A stretch of 64,000 bases of DNA from a virus: IMG/VR virus record IMGVR_UViG_3300042691_009766, positions 6,391 to 70,390 of that record, one strand, 5' to 3'. The notes beneath the pieces are model-generated. The model ran no database searches and had not been told where the DNA came from. It saw nothing but the letters and a program-made list of their open reading frames with translations. Shown here one piece after another: positions 41,144 through 62,858 of the stretch (its first letter is position 1; each line of letters starts with the position of its first letter). The position numbers and the translations under genes are program-made.

Positions 41144-41356
41144 ATGGCAGTTAACACATCACGTTCAATGAACAAGAGCCTAAATGAAGGTTCAACAGAC
41201 GGTAAGTACCGTAAAGTACGCCCAGACACCGAAGTAGTAGATGTTATGGGTAACGAGAAGACTCTAGACAATCGTCAGAGCCTACACCCATTCTTTGGCT
41301 ATGGTTTCGTAACTAGCGAGTATCCAGCCGAATCTAAGGTTAACCCAGGAAAGTAA
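41144..41356 (+). CDS. hypothetical protein
   Basis: AAGGA RBS. Confidence 0.7.
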   Translation: MAVNTSRSMNKSLNEGSTDGKYRKVRPDTEVVDVMGNEKTLDNRQSLHPFFGYGFVTSEYPAESKVNPGK

Positions 41357-43607: not shown

Positions 43608-44093
43608 ATGCAAATACTCGTAGAACTAGAAGGCGTACTAAGAGGACAAAAAGATGAGCCAATTGCCACGGGCATCATTCTCACAGCCCAATTAGCAGCC
43701 CATAATCAAATCATTTTTATGACGGAGTTATCCCAAGCCGAAGCAGAGCAGTGGATTAACGTCAATAAAGTCGTTGATTACGACATGTTAGTAGACGCCA
43801 ACCTATCTCTGGTAGATGAGCCATTAAAGCATCGTCAGTTAAAGTACGCTCGTGCTAGAGGCAGTGTTGATTTAGTAATCACCAATGACCCATCATTTTG
43901 GGCGTATGCGTTTGACCAAGGCATTACCTGCATGATGTTTGGTGTCCCATCCTATACCCGCCCAGAGTTTCGCCCAGATGCCCCTAAAAAAGTCAGGGCA
44001 TGGAGTGAGATTGAGTTAGCCGTTGCTAAACAAAACGAGTTGCGTACAACAGATAAGCGTTTAACACGCACTGAAGGCACAAGGTTTGAATGA
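43608..44093 (+). CDS. HAD-like fold protein (degenerate motif I)
   Basis: ILVELEGVL resembles hhhDhDGVL; GGAGG RBS. Confidence 0.55.
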   Translation: MQILVELEGVLRGQKDEPIATGIILTAQLAAHNQIIFMTELSQAEAEQWINVNKVVDYDMLVDANLSLVDEPLKHRQLKYARARGSVDLVITNDPSFWAYAFDQGITCMMFGVPSYTRPEFRPDAPKKVRAWSEIELAVAKQNELRTTDKRLTRTEGTRFE

Positions 44094-45580
44094 TAATTTT
44101 TGGCGGAGTTGAGATACCTTCCAACAGAACACTATTGGAACGGTCAGGCGTAACAAATGTAATGTTGAATTACTGGGGGTTACGTAAGCGTGGATTGCCC
44201 AAGACTAAACCCTATTTGATAGGCGAGCATTTCCTTCCTGAGACTAAAGTATGGGTGGATTCAGGTGCAACTCAGGCAGACAAATCAAACCTGTCTAAAG
44301 TCGAATTAGAGGAATATGCCGCTGATTATGAGGAGTTTATTTCCCTAAATTATGACCGCATTGAAGGCTGGACAGAGTTTGATAGTCAGGTCATGGGGTT
44401 TGACTGGATTTTGAAACAGCGGGATGCGTTTGAAAATGACCCGAAATTATGGGTAGTTTGGCACAGCAAGTATAAGACCAACCTGTTGCAGTATTGGTCT
44501 GCCCAGTATCAAAACATAGCCATACCCCACGAATCTATAGAGGCAACCGTTAATTTAGCCACTATTACCAGAAATTTACGGAGGTCTAATGGAGTTCAAT
44601 TCCATGCGTTAGCAACAGCAAAACCAGACAATCTCCGACAAATCCCTTTTGCTACCGCAAGCACGCTGGCATGGTTAAGCCCAATGAGAAGAGGCGAGAC
44701 AATCATTTGGGATGGCAGTAAACTGGTTAGGTATCCTAAAAAGATGAAAGACCAAGCACGGCTACGATACAAGGCAACTGTTGAACGTGCAGGATTAAAT
44801 TTTCAGAAGTTCGTTTCAGACGACACCTTGGAAGCAACTAGGGTTGCAATATGGTCGTATTTACAGTTAGAGGCAAATGTGGACAAAGATAAGCCAGACC
44901 TAAGAGTTATTCAAGGCGGTCAAAAAGACCCGTTAATAGCAGATAACAATGACGACACCCTATATACGGGTTTGATGGAATTAGGGGGGGTAGGTTCTGA
45001 TAACAGTGCATTAGAAATGCGGAAAGAAGTTGTGCAGAGAGACCCTCAAGAAATGACCGCAATGCCCGTTTTTGGGTATGAAATGAAGACCATAGTGGAG
45101 AACCAAGATGGTCGAGATGTGTTAAAACAAGTTTCAGTTGTACAGACCAATACAAGTAGTTTGAGACAATGCGACACCTGTTTTGTTGCATCAAATTGTC
45201 CTGCATTTAAGCCTCAAAATACATGTGCGTTTAACCTTCCAGTAGAGGTAAAAACTCCAGAACAATTGAAGGCGTTGAACACCGCAATGTTAGAGATGCA
45301 AGCCCAACGAGTAGCATTTATGCGGTTTGCAGAGGAAGCCAATGGTGGTTATGCTGACCCTAACCTGTCTCAAGAGATGGACAGATACTTCAAGATGTTG
45401 GAGAAGTTAAAGGCGTTAGACGAGAACAAAGAGTTTATTCAAATTACCGCTCAACGAGCAGCGTCACAGGGTGTATTAAGTGCTATCTTTGGTGACCGAG
45501 TGGCAGCCGCAAAGGAGATTCAACCTGTAATCTCCGAAGAGCAAACCACTATGATTATCAAGAACCAGATAGAAGACTAA
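44090..45580 (+). CDS. TGT/DpdA-like barrel protein with C-terminal Cys cluster
   Basis: VWVDSGA, FHALAT, ASTLAW..PMR.G; CDTC..NCP...C. Confidence 0.5.
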   Translation: MIIFGGVEIPSNRTLLERSGVTNVMLNYWGLRKRGLPKTKPYLIGEHFLPETKVWVDSGATQADKSNLSKVELEEYAADYEEFISLNYDRIEGWTEFDSQVMGFDWILKQRDAFENDPKLWVVWHSKYKTNLLQYWSAQYQNIAIPHESIEATVNLATITRNLRRSNGVQFHALATAKPDNLRQIPFATASTLAWLSPMRRGETIIWDGSKLVRYPKKMKDQARLRYKATVERAGLNFQKFVSDDTLEATRVAIWSYLQLEANVDKDKPDLRVIQGGQKDPLIADNNDDTLYTGLMELGGVGSDNSALEMRKEVVQRDPQEMTAMPVFGYEMKTIVENQDGRDVLKQVSVVQTNTSSLRQCDTCFVASNCPAFKPQNTCAFNLPVEVKTPEQLKALNTAMLEMQAQRVAFMRFAEEANGGYADPNLSQEMDRYFKMLEKLKALDENKEFIQITAQRAASQGVLSAIFGDRVAAAKEIQPVISEEQTTMIIKNQIED

Positions 45581-45734: not shown

Positions 45735-47774
45735 ATGGTTAACTTCTCCTTCAAACTTGCGGAAGACTTTATCGCAGGATACAAGAACAAGAAAGCCCCA
45801 TTCGGTTACGCAGATGTTGCAGGAAACTCCGTTGGTGAGATTACATTCCTCCGCACATACTCTCGCCTCAAAGAAGACGGCACTAAGGAAACTTGGGCTG
45901 AAGTATGTGAGCGTGTAATCAATGGGATGTATTCTTTACAAAAAGATTGGGCTAAGGTTTCACGCTTACCTTGGTCAGATGCAAAAGCAGCGGCTTCGGC
46001 TAAAGAAGCGTATGACCGCTTATTCAACCTAAAGTGGACCCCGCCTGGGCGTGGGCTTTGGGTAATGGGAACTGAGATTGTAAATGTCCAAAAGAACTCA
46101 GCGGCTTTACAGAACTGTGCCTTTGTTTCTACTTTAGAAATGACTAAAAACAATCCCGCTAAACCTTTCGGCTTTCTTATGGAGGCTTCCATGCTAGGCG
46201 TAGGAGTTGGCTTTGACGACAAGGGTGCTGATAAAGGCTTTGAAATCTATGAGCCGCAAGGAACTCAAGCCTATGTTATTCCAGATACTCGTGAAGGCTG
46301 GCAGGAAAGCACCTCTGCTTTGATTAACTCTTACTTGAAGCCAGAACAATCTGCTTTGGTTTTTGACTATTCTGCTATTCGTCCTTATGGAGCCCCTATC
46401 GCTACTTTTGGCGGTACTGCTTCTGGACCAGAACCTCTTGTAAGGCTTCATAAACAACTCTTCAAGATGTTCTCTGGTCGTAAAGGCGAGACGCTCACTC
46501 GTAAAGACATTGCAGACATTGGAAACCTGATTGGCGTGTGTGTTGTCTCTGGGAATGTGAGACGCTCTGCCGAACTTCTTATTGGTCGAATTGACGATGA
46601 AGACTTCTTGAACTTGAAGAACGCTGAACGCTTCCCTGAAAGAAACTCTTATGACCCTGAAGCCCCAGGATGGGCTTGGATGTCTAACAACTCTGTTGAA
46701 GTTGCTGTTGGAACTGACTTCTCTCCTATCGTAGATGGAATTGTCCGTAACGGAGAGCCTGGGGTTATCTGGATGGACACCTCTAGGGCTTATGGACGGC
46801 TTGTAGATGCTCCAAACAACAAAGACCACCGCATTATGGGCTACAACCCTTGTGCCGAACAATCTTTGGAGTCTTTTGAAATGTGTACGCTTGTAGAAAC
46901 CTACTTGAATAGGCACGACTCTTTGGAAGACTTCAAGAGGACTTTGAAGTTTGCTTATCTTTACGCCAAAACAGTTACTCTTCTTCCTACTCACTGGGAA
47001 GAAACTAACTCCATCATGCAAAGAAACCGCAGAATAGGTACTTCTATTTCTGGCGTTGCCAACTTTGCGGATAACAAGGGGCATCATGTGCTTCGTCAAT
47101 GGATGGATGAAGGCTACAAAGTTGTTCAAGGCTACGACAAGACCTACTCTGAGTGGCTTGGTATTCGTGAAAGCATCAAGACCACTACTGTAAAGCCTTC
47201 TGGAACTGTATCTATCTTGGCTGGTGAAAGCCCAGGAGTTCACTGGACTTCTGGCGGAAAGTTCTTCTTGCGAGCCATCCGCTTTGGAAACAATGACCCT
47301 ATGCTTCCTCTTTTCAAAATGGCTAACTATCGCATTGAACCTGCTTCTGAAAGCCCAGACACTACTTCGGTTGTCTTCTTTCCTATCAAGACTGACGCAA
47401 AGCGTTCTGAAAAAGATGTCTCCATCTTTGAAAAAATGGCTTTGGCTTCTACTGCTCAACGCTACTGGAGTGATAACTCGGTCTCCTGTACAATCACCTT
47501 CAACACAAACACTGAGGCTAAAGATGTCGGAACTGTCCTTCACCTCTACGATGGGCAGTTGAAGACGGCTTCGTTCTTGCCGATGGGGAATGATACTTAC
47601 CCTCAAATGCCGTACACGCAAATCAGCGAAGAGGACTACGAGGCTTATGGTCATAAACTATTTCCGATTGACTTTACGGGAGTGTATGCGGGGATGGCTT
47701 CTGATGCCATTGGGGAAGCGTATTGCACGACTGATGCTTGTGAAATCAAACTAATCACAGACAATAGCAAGTAA
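45735..47774 (+). CDS. nrdJ: class II (adenosylcobalamin-dependent) ribonucleotide reductase
   Basis: TFLRTYSR, PPGRGLW, NCAF, GNVRRSA, NPCAEQ, TTVKPSGTVS, C-terminal CTTDAC. Confidence 0.93.
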   Translation: MVNFSFKLAEDFIAGYKNKKAPFGYADVAGNSVGEITFLRTYSRLKEDGTKETWAEVCERVINGMYSLQKDWAKVSRLPWSDAKAAASAKEAYDRLFNLKWTPPGRGLWVMGTEIVNVQKNSAALQNCAFVSTLEMTKNNPAKPFGFLMEASMLGVGVGFDDKGADKGFEIYEPQGTQAYVIPDTREGWQESTSALINSYLKPEQSALVFDYSAIRPYGAPIATFGGTASGPEPLVRLHKQLFKMFSGRKGETLTRKDIADIGNLIGVCVVSGNVRRSAELLIGRIDDEDFLNLKNAERFPERNSYDPEAPGWAWMSNNSVEVAVGTDFSPIVDGIVRNGEPGVIWMDTSRAYGRLVDAPNNKDHRIMGYNPCAEQSLESFEMCTLVETYLNRHDSLEDFKRTLKFAYLYAKTVTLLPTHWEETNSIMQRNRRIGTSISGVANFADNKGHHVLRQWMDEGYKVVQGYDKTYSEWLGIRESIKTTTVKPSGTVSILAGESPGVHWTSGGKFFLRAIRFGNNDPMLPLFKMANYRIEPASESPDTTSVVFFPIKTDAKRSEKDVSIFEKMALASTAQRYWSDNSVSCTITFNTNTEAKDVGTVLHLYDGQLKTASFLPMGNDTYPQMPYTQISEEDYEAYGHKLFPIDFTGVYAGMASDAIGEAYCTTDACEIKLITDNSK

Positions 47775-47821: not shown

Positions 47822-48154
47822 CTAATCCTTTAGGATGGTGTTCTCATCTGTAAGTTGTACGAGAGTTTTTTGACCGCCACTCTCAACAAGAGCCTTGAGA
47901 AACTCTGCTTTTCTGCTTGGGTGCTTACGGAGGTAGATGCGTTCTTTCATCGTAGTTCCGCCCCAGATACCCCACTCATCATTTCTGATGGCATAGTTCA
48001 GGCAGGTCTCTAACAAAGGACATCTGGAACAGATGGTTTTGGCTTGTCTTGTAATCTTCATCCAGTCTTTACCCTCAGGCATAAAGATGTCTGGGTCTTC
48101 ACCGAAACAGATTGCTTTCTCGGTATCAAATAATGGCTCTTTTTCTTTTGCCAT
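47822..48154 (-). CDS. whiB: WhiB-family transcription factor (second copy)
   Basis: C.GEDPDIF, AKTICSRCPL..TCL, WGIWGGTT..ER. Confidence 0.92.
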   Translation of the reverse strand: MAKEKEPLFDTEKAICFGEDPDIFMPEGKDWMKITRQAKTICSRCPLLETCLNYAIRNDEWGIWGGTTMKERIYLRKHPSRKAEFLKALVESGGQKTLVQLTDENTILKD

Positions 48155-48286
48155 GGCTATCTTCCTCTCTTGTATTCTTTGATTGCTTGCCTGATACGAG
48201 GCTTGATAAACCCGTACCAACGATTTTGCATGACCATCTTGTATTCACCTAATGGATAGCGGAGTAAATGCCACTCCGCCCTATGC

Positions 48287-60180: not shown

Positions 60181-60386
60181 TAGTTAGCCTCCTGTATGTC
60201 GGTTGTTAGTTCCCAAAGTTCCTCTGCTATCTCCTGAATAACTAAACGCTTCTCCATAGCCCTAGTAGTCAGGTCATCACAGCAAGCATAGGACATAGCG
60301 TTTCGCATGAGCCTAGCCCTCTTCGGCTTTAGGTGCTTGTTTCGTGCTTTCTTTACTGCTGGTGTATCTTTGAGTGTTCTACTCAC
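60180..60386 (-). CDS. hypothetical protein
   Basis: AAGGAG RBS after repeat, GTG start. Confidence 0.65.
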   Translation of the reverse strand: MSRTLKDTPAVKKARNKHLKPKRARLMRNAMSYACCDDLTTRAMEKRLVIQEIAEELWELTTDIQEAN

Positions 60387-60472
60387 TTGCTCTCCTTGTT
60401 TGGTTGGTGTTGCCTCACTATTGGGTCAGTGAGTTATTTGATTGTTAGTTCCCAAATCTTCAGGCTAGTTAG

Positions 60473-60678
60473 GTGAGCAGTTTAGACACTTACTCAGGTG
60501 CTTAGATAGTTTAGCCACTCTTGCGATAATCTAAATGTGGTCGCATTGACTAAGGCAGGTCGCACCCTCCTTAGTTTGCTCATACCAACTCTGCCTCGGT
60601 TGGCTGAGGTTAGGACACGATTGCGAGTTCCTAACTAATCTTTAGTTGTGTGAGCAGTTTAGACACTTGCTCAGGTGT
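60473..60678 (-). ncRNA. candidate structured RNA (3 pseudoknot motifs + 3 hairpins)
   Basis: intergenic on - strand; covarying stems; complementary UCGCA/UGCGA loops. Confidence 0.6.
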
Positions 60679-60701
60679 TTCTACCAACCACCAGCAGAAA
60701 T

Positions 60702-61070
60702 CTACCCGTAAGTTATTTCCCCGAAGATTGCGTATTGGCATACCAAATCACCGAAGCAAGCGTCAGGGTCTTCCAAGTCCAATGGATAGTTCCCACAATG
60801 AGTTTGCCCAGCAGACAAGGCTAGTTGATAGCCCTTGGCTAGTTGGTCTAGCGTAATGGTGTGCCACTTCTCTTCGTAATCGTCCCAGAGCATAAAGTCC
60901 TGAGGGTTAGGCTCGTAATCAGGTTTAGTCCAAAGACTAATGCCCTTGCCGTCAGGCTTACGAACCTTGCTTGCCCAATAACCCATACCAGCACCATCAC
61001 TACCCCAGATTGCTTCCCAGAGTTCGTTGAGTGATACTTCCATGCTTATTGTTATCTTCTTGTCTTCCAT
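60702..61070 (-). CDS. conserved phage hypothetical protein
   Basis: G.GYWA...DA...D...QYAIFGEI.YG. Confidence 0.75.
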   Translation of the reverse strand: MEDKKITISMEVSLNELWEAIWGSDGAGMGYWASKVRKPDGKGISLWTKPDYEPNPQDFMLWDDYEEKWHTITLDQLAKGYQLALSAGQTHCGNYPLDLEDPDACFGDLVCQYAIFGEITYG

Positions 61071-61131
61071 GTGTTCTTCTTTCTGTTTGGTTGGTGTTGC
61101 CTCACTATTGGGTCAGCAAGTTATCTTATTG

Positions 61132-61281
61132 TTAGTTCCCAAGAGTTTCGGTCTTGCTTACAGCAAGTCGGTCTAGTGTGTCTAGTCGTGTTGCCTTAGG
61201 CAGAAGAGTAATCCTCAATAGGTCTATCATTGAGTAGTCCTCAGGTAGAACCCAAGTAATCATGTCCTCTGTGTATTCCAT
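61132..61281 (-). CDS. 49-aa peptide ending GN* in repeat
   Basis: AAGGAGG RBS between two repeats; translated by hand. Confidence 0.55.
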   Translation of the reverse strand: MEYTEDMITWVLPEDYSMIDLLRITLLPKATRLDTLDRLAVSKTETLGN

Positions 61282-61327
61282 GTTGCCTCCTTGTTGTGTT
61301 CTCACTATTGGGTCAGCGAGTTATCTT

Positions 61328-61490
61328 ATTGTTAGTTCCCAAATCTCGTATGTATGCCCAACACAAACAATCGCATTGTTAGTTCCCAAGCGTGAGGCAT
61401 TGTTAGTTCCCAAGACACAGGCTCGCAGGTATGCCAATACCCCCCACCCTTACGGGTGAGGGGTAGAGGTATGCGATTGTTAGTTCCCAG
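61328..61490. repeat. cluster of four ATTGTTAGTTCCCA half-sites with GC hairpin
   Basis: copies at 61328, 61375, 61399, 61476; hairpin TACCCCCCACCC-ttac-GGGTGAGGGGTA. Confidence 0.85.
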
Positions 61491-61686
61491 AAGTTTCGGG
61501 TGTTGCCTTGGTGATGTGTCCTGCCTCTATCAAAGCCTCGGCAGTTCTCCCGTAGAACCCTTGTAGTTGCCATGCCATACCTGTATCAACTAGGTATTGG
61601 AACATAGCCAGCAAGCGTTCCTCAGTAATCTCGCCACACTCAAAGTCCATGATGTCCATGACTAGATTGTCCTTGTTGTATTCCAT
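61480..61686 (-). CDS. conserved phage protein (Q.L.DTG.AW.LQG.YGRTA)
   Basis: motif; AAGGA RBS after repeat. Confidence 0.75.
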   Translation of the reverse strand: MEYNKDNLVMDIMDFECGEITEERLLAMFQYLVDTGMAWQLQGFYGRTAEALIEAGHITKATPETSGN

Positions 61687-61748
61687 GTTGTTTCCTTATC
61701 TGTTGGTTGGTTGTTGCCTCACTATTGGGTCATGAGGTTATTTGATTG

Positions 61749-62033
61749 TTAGTTCCCAATGTTCTTGCGTTCAGTTGGCAAGCCGTTCTTCTGGAAGAAG
61801 TATCCCCTCATGATTAGAGGCACATACTTATCGTCCAAAGCCCACTCATCATCAAGGCGAAATACTTGGTTGCCCTCTTTATCAGTAGTCCATGAGGCTA
61901 CTACCTCACCAAAGACTTTCACAATGTAATCGCCCTTGTGGTTCTTGTATCCCGTCATGCTACCCCACCTAAACTCCTCATAGGTGTTGATGAAGTATGG
62001 CACTTGTTCTTTAGCAATAGTTAGTCTTGCCAT
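61749..62033 (-). CDS. hypothetical protein
   Basis: CCTGAGGAGG RBS; ends GN* in repeat. Confidence 0.7.
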   Translation of the reverse strand: MARLTIAKEQVPYFINTYEEFRWGSMTGYKNHKGDYIVKVFGEVVASWTTDKEGNQVFRLDDEWALDDKYVPLIMRGYFFQKNGLPTERKNIGN

Positions 62034-62081
62034 GTTGCTTGCCTCCTCAGGCTTGTTGGTTGGTGTTGCCTCACTATTGGG

Positions 62082-62243
62082 TCAGCGAGTTATTTGATTG
62101 TTAGTTCCCAAGTCCTCTTCGCCTTGCTCGGCTGAGGCGTGGCACTCACACTCACACACCCAAGTCTTCTCGTAATAGGTGATTGACTTGTGGCAGGTGT
62201 CGTGGTGTCGGGTGATACAGAACCCAGATACATACTTGCTCAT
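62082..62243 (-). CDS. 53-aa Cys/His peptide ending LGTNNQITR* in repeat
   Basis: GFC...H..C...CECECH; GAGG RBS; translated by hand. Confidence 0.6.
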   Translation of the reverse strand: MSKYVSGFCITRHHDTCHKSITYYEKTWVCECECHASAEQGEEDLGTNNQITR

Positions 62244-62450
62244 GGTTGTTGCCTCTCGTGCTTGGTGGTGGAGGGAGGGGGTCGGGGGGAGGTTGCCCTC
62301 CCCCCTCTATGAAACTTAGTTTCTAAGTCCCATAGGTTCGGCATGTTGTTATTCAGCAGTATTACCTCAACGCCTCTTACTTGCTACTGCCTAGTATGTT
62401 TATCCCGTATCAAACATACAAACTTTATCTAGGTCATCTGCCTAGCAAGA

Positions 62451-62477
62451 GAGCAGTTTAGCCACTTGCTCAGGTGG
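62451..62477 (-). ncRNA. pseudoknot motif copy in 3' UTR
   Basis: CCAC-CUGAGCAA-GUGG-CUAAACU-GCUC, 12 nt after stop of 62490-62858. Confidence 0.6.
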
Positions 62478-62489
62478 TGTTGCCTAGCC

Positions 62490-62858
62490 TTAGGCTAGAA
62501 CCTCAGCCTCAGCCTCAGCCTTGGTGATTGCTACTGCCTTAGGCTTCGCCTTAGCCTTGCCCTTAGCCTTAGCCTTGGTTGCCTTAGCCTTAGCCTTGGC
62601 TCGTGCCTCAGCCTTAGCCTTTCTCTCACTCTTGAGAACGAGAGCCTTGGTGTCCCCTAGTTCAGCGAGCAGACCTCTAATGAAGTCAATGTCGTTGCTG
62701 TATGCTTCAGCGTTCTCTTCGCTGAAACTATCGCTTGCCTCGTCCTGAGCATACTTACGGAGAGTATCTCTCTGGAGAGCCAACTTTCGTAGTCCCTCAA
62801 TGATGTATGGGACGGCTTCTGTTGCTACTTTGGTGGTGCTTGCTGGCTTGTTTGCCAT
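62490..62858 (-). CDS. protein with histone-H1-like KA-repeat tail
   Basis: KAKAEARAKAKAKATKAKAKGKAKAKPK. Confidence 0.75.
   Translation of the reverse strand: MANKPASTTKVATEAVPYIIEGLRKLALQRDTLRKYAQDEASDSFSEENAEAYSNDIDFIRGLLAELGDTKALVLKSERKAKAEARAKAKAKATKAKAKGKAKAKPKAVAITKAEAEAEVLA

Follow-up and report, generated by a model that had tools for sequence, protein, structure and literature searches.

In both the pistol ribozyme and the fluoride riboswitch, the loop of a hairpin pairs with a downstream strand and an AAA-containing linker stands right after the hairpin. The -1 frameshift pseudoknots of the luteovirids (beet western yellows virus) measure about 28 nucleotides (nt), with a first loop of 1-2 nt that contains a C and a junction of one nt, while REP elements and T7 RNase III sites are intercistronic stabilisers or processing sites. 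Here we compare with these systems a short element present in four copies in the window, by which we mean the whole stretch of viral DNA analysed, 64,000 nt that correspond to bases 6391-70390 of the 70.4-kb IMG/VR virus record IMGVR_UViG_3300042691_009766 (estimated completeness of the record, 75%). As read from its sequence, the element is a 28-nt H-type pseudoknot transcribed within sense mRNA, and the repeats are almost certainly copies of a genuine phage RNA pseudoknot family.

The record belongs to a tailed phage and encodes tail sheath, baseplate, DnaB, primase, PolA, UvsX, ribonucleotide reductase, a TGT/DpdA-like enzyme and WhiB. An earlier note on this DNA, made from the letters alone, had described four pseudoknot copies, three canonical and one divergent, read from the minus strand; all of them were borne out on that reading. 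They sit among small minus-strand open reading frames (ORFs), in a block close to the end of the contig. Copy A (62450..62477, minus strand; pattern scan and covariance model, 50.5 bits) pairs C62477-C62474 with G62465-G62462 in the first helix (P1), of which the outer pair is C-G, and 62471-62467 with 62455-62451 in the second helix (S2); its first loop (L1) is C62473 and its linker, CUAAAC, occupies 62461-62456. Copy B (60651..60678, minus strand; pattern scan and covariance model, 53.5 bits) reads ACAC-C-UGAGCA-A-GUGU-CUAAAC-UGCUCA, with P1 formed by 60678-60675 and 60666-60663 and S2 by 60673-60668 and 60656-60651. Copy D (60474..60501, minus strand; pattern scan and model, 51.5 bits) has a G-U outer P1 pair and a U10-G24 wobble in S2, and abuts directly on the divergent copy C (60502..60540, minus strand; partial model match, 13.1 bits). 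The sequence common to copies B, D and A is CACCUGAG[C/U]AAGUGNCUAAACUGCUC. Copy C reads CCAC-AU-UUAGAU-UAUCGCAAGA-GUGG-CUAAACU-AUCUAA, that is, with AU as L1, an internal loop of 10 nt and a new second helix in which UUAGAU (60534-60529) faces AUCUAA (60507-60502). It was counted as a member because P1 (CCAC/GUGG) and the linker CUAAACU are retained and a new 6-base-pair (bp) complement is present. The variation of the outer P1 pair (A-U, G-U or C-G) and the exchange of the second helix in copy C, both pointed out previously, were thus seen on the minus strand. Two copies had also been placed 12-24 nt after stop codons, and we found copy A to start 12 nt past the TAA (62492-62490) of the ORF at 62858-62490 and copy B 23 nt past the TAG (60704-60702) of the ORF at 61070-60702.

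The repetition in the window exceeds chance. The pattern CACN8GTGNCTAAACT, allowing at most one mismatch, occurs three times in the window against 0.13 expected, and none of 100 shuffled sequences reached three, whereas CTAAACT alone is not enriched (12 found, 13.7 expected). In the whole record, GTGKCTAAACT has four matches, all on the reverse strand. A covariance model trained on other phages scored the three canonical copies at 50.5-53.5 bits; in copy C it recognized only the GUGG-CUAAACU part (E value 0.27), and besides the four copies nothing in the 64-kb window exceeded 10.4 bits. The seven letters CUAAACU, previously taken as an invariant linker, are indeed present in all four copies, but the final U is paired: A11-U23 is the sixth pair of the second helix, and the linker is therefore 6 nt long, CUAAAC, of which only AAAC is constant throughout the family. 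Four metagenome DNA runs compared with the window, whose cover is thin, list no variant letters inside the four copies; in three of the four, a metagenome contig with unrelated flanks matches only about 60642-60678. Among GenBank phages, no DNA similar to the whole 2.4-kb region was found.

The anatomy of the family can be summarized from the 5' end as a P1 strand of 3-4 nt ending in C, L1 as a single C, an S2 strand U-R-A-G-Y-A, a second loop (L2) of one A or U, a P1 strand that begins with G, the linker NNAAAC and an S2 strand U-G-C-U-Y-A. It must be noted that the sets used for covariation were gathered by patterns, which impose part of the constancy observed. The S2 helix was examined in 130 unique-context matches to CACCNNNNNAAGTGNCTAAACT among the matches listed; because some of its loci had first been detected with S2 fixed, the commonest helix is over-represented in this set, but not the variants. 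All four inner pairs were formed in 100 of the 130 matches, against 0, 2, 3 and 2 when the 3' strand was slid out of register, and 19 distinct 4-bp helices were present. For P1, 77 matches to CTAAGCAANNNNNNAAACTGCTT (65 distinct) among the matches listed were used. Pair 2-15 was formed in all 65 (GC 33, CG 14, AU 9, UA 9), pair 3-14 in 64 (AU 49, UA 14, CG 1) and pair 4-13 also in 64, while the outer pair 1-16 was formed in 43. In the merged alignment of 134 distinct rows, 92.7% of the cells pair, compared with 78.9% in column shuffles (0/500 reached the observed value), and double-sided changes occur in nine of the ten pairs; slid controls gave 18-39%. The pair A11-U23 is invariant in this alignment.

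The unpaired positions are far less variable than the helices. In the sampled sets, C4-G13, L1 as C, L2 as A or U and AAAC are nearly constant. A looser scan, in which only CAC, GTG, the spacing, S2 complementarity and AAA were fixed, returned L1 as C in 170/170 and L2 as AA or AT in 170/170 of the matches listed. The first two letters of the linker vary (CU, AU, UA, UU, GU, UC). An alternative nested fold, which would extend S2 by G13-C22 and U14-A21, was rejected, since U14 is replaced by A in concert with a change of A3, whereas A21 does not vary. The H-type pseudoknot with compensatory changes that had been proposed from four copies is thus upheld by independent covariation of both helices across hundreds of unrelated contigs; a larger alignment was where a lack of covariation had been expected to count against it.

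Several traits place the fold on the sense RNA. Position 10, which was free in the first scan and lies opposite G24, is C in 88, U in 26 and A in one of 115 instances; inner-pair wobbles in the merged alignment number 25 versus at most 11 non-pairs, and G-U wobbles are frequent, unlike the reciprocal A-C combinations, which are rare. In addition, the closest ORF upstream has the orientation of the knot in 97 of 119 instances (opposite in 18), and in all 25 multi-copy loci every copy is on one strand. By these wobble pairs and the orientation of the genes, the fold is assigned to the sense RNA, in agreement with the previous reading as RNA on the minus strand.

The same data bear on a site acting at the DNA level, such as an operator, a promoter, an NrdR-box-like palindrome or a single-stranded DNA structure. 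In favour of such a site, CACYTG..CARGTG makes the canonical copy an imperfect palindrome, TAAACT could serve as a -10 box, and in SIO1-like phages the element adjoins the ribonucleotide reductase gene. However, a palindrome bound by a dimer does not explain two interleaved helices that covary, the wobbles are found on one strand only, the orientation follows the genes, and the element comes after the reductase gene rather than before it. NrdR boxes are tandem 16-bp palindromes upstream of ribonucleotide reductase genes; here the element is single, lies downstream of the reductase stop codon and has strand-specific wobbles, and 63 of 73 upstream proteins are not ribonucleotide reductases, so that an NrdR box was rejected. 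The canonical pattern is nearly absent from host genomes and is therefore not a host type of promoter. We consider a DNA-level site very improbable.

Pattern scans and covariance-model searches of phage and metagenome sequences, the latter of the kind that the earlier note had proposed, found the family far beyond the window. The fully specified 26-mer pattern is present in 72 IMG/VR stretches with unrelated flanks, the pattern with both S2 strands free in at least 118 and the pattern with P1 free in at least 110. On the host side, where the scan covered the canonical sequence only, it was found in just two stretches across 185,579 prokaryote species (one genome each), both of them contigs of metagenome-assembled genomes. 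Cultured phages in GenBank that infect Rhodobacteraceae, cyanobacteria, Moraxella, Sinorhizobium and Clostridium tetani also have the element. It is carried by SIO1 and its relatives Lentibacter ICBM1-3, Celeribacter P12053L, CRP-6 and CRP-13, and by the Clostridium tetani phages phiCT19406B and phiCTC2B. A more diverged form occurs in the cyanophages Ma-LMM01, PaV-LD and A-HIS1, in Moraxella phage Mcat1 and in Sinorhizobium phage ort11. These diverged matches score 11.9-14.9 bits with covariance model R1 and were accepted because in each of them the spacing is right and P1 has changed in a compensated way; they receive high scores from model R2, but its training set included them. Most phages have a single copy. 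By the strict pattern scan there are 1 to 4 copies per locus, and some uncultured contigs have five or six same-strand model matches (E value up to 1) within about 10 kb. The element is therefore found in hundreds of unrelated phage contigs and, if our reading of it is correct, would be a structured RNA very common in phages for which Rfam has no family. Sequence-string and keyword searches of the literature returned no description of the motif, and none was found in the portions available to us of the studies on cobaviruses (PMC6775973) and on the Ma-LMM01 transcriptome (PMC5780444) or of PMC10690425. The last of these is a catalogue of 8,495 unnamed IMG/VR candidate RNAs, whose supplementary tables may contain the motif.

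With respect to genes, context was counted for the canonical subfamily, in 119 instances from the loci of the fully specified and S2-free patterns (among the matches listed), using a crude ORF caller with a minimum length of 60 aa; many of these contigs have relatives among the others. The knot starts at most 30 nt past a same-strand stop codon in 73 of the 119 instances, and none of them overlaps the upstream ORF, while the distance to the next start codon is broad, from 10 to more than 500 nt. The spacers measure 4 nt in two instances, 5 nt in 11, 6 nt in 12, 7 nt in two, 8 nt in five, 9 nt in five and 10-14 nt in 14, with none shorter than 4 nt. A second group of 17-28 nt comprises 23 instances in which, by eye, a small hairpin fills the gap. 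The flanks avoid G, which is found in 1/115 at position -1 and in 2-12/115 at positions 29-34; positions 28-30 are often A-C-C (A 83, C 63 and C 45 of 115) and no conservation was seen beyond position 30 in the 115 instances. What follows the knot varies: a ribosome-binding site and a gene, a tRNA, a terminator-like hairpin or another knot. In SIO1-like phages the order is always reductase, knot, glutaredoxin. The copy of Ma-LMM01 (NC_008562, around 41147-41178) lies between gp061 and gp060, on their strand, within gp054-gp063, a block described in PMC5780444 as the early transcribed cluster.

The spacing to stop codons raises the question of the ribosome. A knot at the mRNA entry channel while the stop codon is in the A site could tune termination, readthrough, frameshifting, re-initiation or coupling. 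A distance of 5-6 nt is the spacing of recoding pseudoknots, and 35 of the 73 stop-proximal copies lie at 5-9 nt, 23 of them at the peak of 5-6 nt. The stop codons adjacent to the knot are also biased, with TAA in 59, TAG in 14 and TGA in none of the 73, compared with fractions of 0.66, 0.22 and 0.12 for background ORFs of at least 250 aa, and in several stop-proximal cases a second in-frame TAA stands directly before the knot. TGA was observed to end 12-22% of the long ORFs in the same loci. On the other hand, two secondary copies in L136 do follow TGA. In-frame extension past the stop would add a median of 13 codons (at least 30 in 15/73), and the other frames a median of eight (at least 30 in 20/146), which indicates no extended product, and no slippery sequences were seen by eye. 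Moreover, many copies are found far from any stop (copies C and D of the window, 47 nt in Ma-LMM01, about 130 nt in PaV-LD and about 160 nt in phiCT19406B) and some lie inside a tRNA array (L137). A recoding signal, either for frameshifting or for readthrough, was rejected given the short extensions, the lack of a slippery site and the frequent tandem stops, and a ribosome-directed role in any of the above forms appears improbable.

A role in transcription, as a pseudoknot-assisted terminator or pause or as a cis antiterminator that modifies RNA polymerase, has some points in its favour. In 17 of 115 instances TTTT is present in the first 12 or so nt downstream, versus 5 of 115 in the upstream control, and some copies stand just before terminators, as antiterminator RNAs do; terminator-like intrinsic hairpins follow the knot in L149, L153, L138 and L026. 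The single copy per cultured genome is in accordance with this role, and in L010, L023 and L066 the 3' strand and its flank (UGCUCUUUAAU-like) read like a NusB/E box A. Nevertheless, the U-tract is absent in 98/115, antitermination would be pointless at the convergent gene ends where several copies are located, and multiple copies per operon are unexpected for a processive antiterminator. In most copies the box-A-like reading does not hold, and the strand concerned is paired. An intrinsic terminator was rejected, with TTTT in only those 17 instances and stems of 3-6 bp rich in A/U; at the window copies, no terminator-like site was found. A function at the level of transcription is accordingly even less probable than one directed at the ribosome.

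A nuclease block, a processing signal and a protein-binding site, the three roles suggested in the earlier note, are each possible. As a whole, the best explanation, which we regard as plausible although somewhat short of probable, is that of a conserved phage pseudoknot acting as a cis boundary on transcripts; the boundary or roadblock mechanism by itself is held slightly more tentatively. The C linker and the A-rich linker would pack in the grooves of two stacked helices and produce a compact, triplex-like knot. This knot may act in cis as a boundary on polycistronic phage transcripts, as a roadblock that exonucleases, and perhaps scanning RNases or ribosomes, would find hard to pass, so that the cistron or non-coding RNA closed by it would have its end defined and protected and would fold without interference from its neighbours. 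It is the compact, triplex-type anatomy, together with the anchoring just behind the gene or RNA that precedes, whatever comes after the knot, that points to a cis-acting boundary. In this regard, knots bracket non-coding segments in the window and in L069, L008, L132 and L138, a placement of the boundary type.

Some observations weigh against this explanation. About 46 of the 119 instances have no called stop codon within 30 nt, and in copies just before an intrinsic terminator a 3' block seems redundant. The nested folding energy is only -6.9 to -8.9 kcal/mol per copy, so that resistance would need tertiary contacts. Each of five complete cultured genomes (38-162 kb) has one strong match, and a single strong copy is no less compatible with a specific site of regulation or recognition than with a general boundary. 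Finally, linkers that hardly change among phages of such different hosts are just as typical of a ribozyme or of a site that binds a ligand or a protein.

The element may instead be a recognition module, either a riboswitch-like aptamer for a small ligand or a site or decoy for a conserved host or phage protein. Near-invariant linkers (C, A, AAAC) and a fixed C4-G13 pair among variable helices are what is usually seen in a binding pocket, H-type knots that bind ligands are similar in size and layout, and the presence of the same element in phages of Firmicutes, cyanobacteria and proteobacteria suggests a universal partner. Under this alternative the ribosome, S1, RNA polymerase, an RNase or a defence nuclease would be candidates, none of them more than an unlikely one, the linkers would be the binding surface and extra copies would raise the dose; the copy number does range from 1 to 4 per locus, or up to six in the model matches mentioned above. 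The location in early or small-gene regions, in the window and, according to the transcriptome study (PMC5780444), in Ma-LMM01, is also compatible. But the downstream genes have no function in common (glutaredoxin, hypothetical proteins, tRNAs, terminators), no expression platform is apparent, and the position is anchored to the upstream stop codon and not to the next start. Nor is there a shared phage protein. PhoH is absent from the record of the window, and Pfam matches of the 73 upstream proteins are limited to 15 in five families (class II ribonucleotide reductase 10, DUF3846 two, DUF932, amidoligase and SSB one each), with no match for the other 58; a PHROG scan of 20 upstream proteins gave two matches, both of function unknown. 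None of the 18 ORFs near the window copies matches PADLOC models, and with only copies C and D in tandem, a ToxI-like type III antitoxin array was rejected. We judge a recognition module to be unlikely.

It was also observed that proteins of 145-170 aa ending in ...DL[I/L] recur just upstream of the knot in thirteen loci (L006, L008, L014, L021, L028, L038, L049, L108, L115, L118, L119, L132 and L134). The L008 and L006 members are 31% identical (E value 6e-21), while the remaining loci were assigned by eye, on ORF length and 3' end. These proteins have no relationship with the reductase or with the ORFs of the window; they gave no Pfam match (all but L134 scanned) and no PHROG match (L006, L008, L021 and L118).

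An active processing site, that is, a very small self-cleaving ribozyme or a substrate for RNase P or RNase E at gene boundaries, would account for the confinement of the element to phages, its sense-strand position between cistrons and its occasional multiple copies. In four cases (L048, L068, L118 and ort11) a tRNA gene begins 5-10 nt after the knot, and non-coding RNAs are bracketed as if excised. The conservation of unpaired nucleotides, the avoidance of G at position -1 and the stacked helices often followed by A-C-C could be read in the same way. In contrast, 28 nt is, to our knowledge, less than in any natural self-cleaving class, no known ribozyme model matches, and the ACC tail is too weakly conserved for a tRNA-like 3' end; a tRNA-like (ACCA) reading was rejected on this last ground. 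We consider processing quite unlikely, though less so than the roles in translation, transcription or DNA recognition discussed above.

Returning to the element as such, its occurrence in phages of hosts that span bacterial phyla suggests either a universal host machine as partner or a purely physical function. In the boldest form, which we find doubtful, the element would be a new self-contained class of phage RNA, a protein-independent, universal mechanical block (a phage exonuclease-resistant RNA, xrRNA) or, alternatively, a self-cleaving ribozyme of 28 nt or an aptamer for some universal factor of the host, and the 28-nt cassette would have been swapped horizontally among phages of Firmicutes, cyanobacteria and proteobacteria. 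With the same degree of doubt, it could then be one of the smallest natural structured RNAs with invariant tertiary-contact nucleotides. The covariation is unusually clean for an element of this size. Either outcome, a host machine or a physical function, would provide a new handle on the punctuation and stabilisation of polycistronic phage RNAs, a portable insulator or stabiliser of 28 nt for synthetic biology, a marker of strand and gene ends for the annotation of uncultured phage contigs and a compact model system for pseudoknot folding. The cultured phage-host pairs with a single copy (SIO1, Lentibacter ICBM1-3, Microcystis Ma-LMM01) make it directly tractable.

In the window, the knots of the minus-strand block are confined to its two long non-coding stretches. 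The first of these contains a structured non-coding segment of 109 nt with three hairpins (60541..60650, minus strand), located between copy B and copies C and D; its minimum free energy is -34.7 kcal/mol (z -3.0, with 0/200 shuffles as stable) and it has no Rfam match. On the other side of copy B, a small hairpin, UUCUGC / GUAGAA with a 9-nt loop (60679..60699, minus strand; by eye), lies between the stop codon and the knot and abuts P1. Hairpins comparable to it fill the spacer class of 19-23 nt in other phages (by eye). The upstream ORF (60702..61070, minus strand) encodes 122 aa and corresponds to phrog_2355, of function unknown.

The second non-coding segment follows copy A (62338..62449, minus strand; 5-sequence alignment), and the region 62370-62450 folds with -20.9 kcal/mol (z -2.5). 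These approximately 110 nt are conserved in four phage contigs (L069:851-960, L008:5145-5254, L132:2902-3011 and L138:4624-4733), where each segment has a second pseudoknot as its closing element; the window has other sequence in place of this second knot. The segment may be a small RNA gene bracketed by knots. The ORF upstream of copy A (62490..62858, minus strand) also encodes 122 aa, with a Lys/Ala-repeat C-terminus and no family match. This repeat is encoded by AAGGCT repeats (62490-62620, minus strand), and the enormous summed metagenome depth on that interval is attributable to its low complexity. Between copy A and the next ORF there is, in addition, a hairpin made of a G-run, a 4-nt loop and a C-run without a U-tract (62275-62305, minus strand).

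The minus-strand block also has a second repeat, TTGGGAACTAACAAT, with 20 copies (at most one mismatch) between 51988 and 63970, 16 of which have, 12 nt further on, TGACCCAATAGTGAG, a sequence that forms a small hairpin. It precedes nearly every small ORF of the block, and four bare 15-mers of it cluster in 61328-61490. In other metagenome contigs, 60455 is joined to 62039, both positions being beside copies of this repeat. It looks like a phage-specific gene-start signal, either a promoter or an RNA element. A search of the window for tRNA and transfer-messenger RNA genes found none. Elsewhere, a queuine tRNA-ribosyltransferase-like (DpdA-type) gene adjoins those of the ribonucleotide reductase and a WhiB-like regulator (44090-45580, plus strand; 45735-47774, plus strand; 47822-48220, minus strand), which suggests 7-deazaguanine DNA modification and, possibly, an actinobacterial host.

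With regard to known RNA families, no family of Rfam 15 reached its gathering threshold in the 64-kb window, and with E values up to 10 the region 60300-62700 gave only four unrelated weak matches (snoRNAs, a miRNA and a CRISPR repeat). The likeness to the 5' half of pistol ribozymes that had been noted before is sound as far as topology is concerned: a P1 hairpin whose loop pairs downstream and an A-rich linker are present and covary, although this feature is not specific to pistol. Membership was rejected, as there is no Rfam match and the P2/P3 and cleavage-site region expected 3' of the knot was not found, nor is anything conserved downstream in the 115 instances; the previous remark that the catalytic part is absent was correct. 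In the pistol and fluoride modules, further helices placed before the downstream strand carry the active or binding site, whereas in the phage knot the 3' strand comes directly after the linker. The preQ1-I riboswitch aptamer (presumably Rfam RF00522) is likewise a minimal knot of the H type: it measures about 30 nt, its junction nucleotides are conserved and its 3' linker is A-rich. Unlike it, the phage knot has no ribosome-binding site or terminator built into its 3' strand and is anchored to the upstream gene; preQ1-I was rejected given the lack of an Rfam match and of any queuosine link among the downstream genes (glutaredoxin, hypothetical proteins, tRNA-Gln).

The luteovirid frameshift knots share with the phage element the H-type fold, an A-rich loop of 6-7 nt that can occupy the minor groove of the first helix and a location 5-6 nt past the ribosome site. 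The phage knot, however, comes after a stop codon and lacks both a slippery heptamer and an ORF in another frame, and many copies are far from ORF ends; the stem lengths are reversed (short P1, longer S2) and the genomes are those of DNA phages. As to the intercistronic elements, REP and T7 RNase III sites are, like the phage knot, sense-strand structures just past stop codons in polycistronic RNA that set its ends and stability. They are simple or interrupted hairpins with little sequence constraint and specific to lineages, while the phage knot has invariant linkers and extends across host phyla. Among the entries listed by a literature search there was no example of a phage xrRNA. The xrRNAs of flaviviruses and plant viruses have 45-70 nt, form a ring around the 5' end, which a 28-nt H-type knot cannot, and block eukaryotic 5'-to-3' enzymes. 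Even so, these viral elements, which need no protein, depend on a pseudoknot and stand where the untranslated RNA begins, just past the coding region and sometimes in tandem; by this analogy in position and pseudoknot dependence we propose them as the possible nearest functional counterpart of the phage knot.

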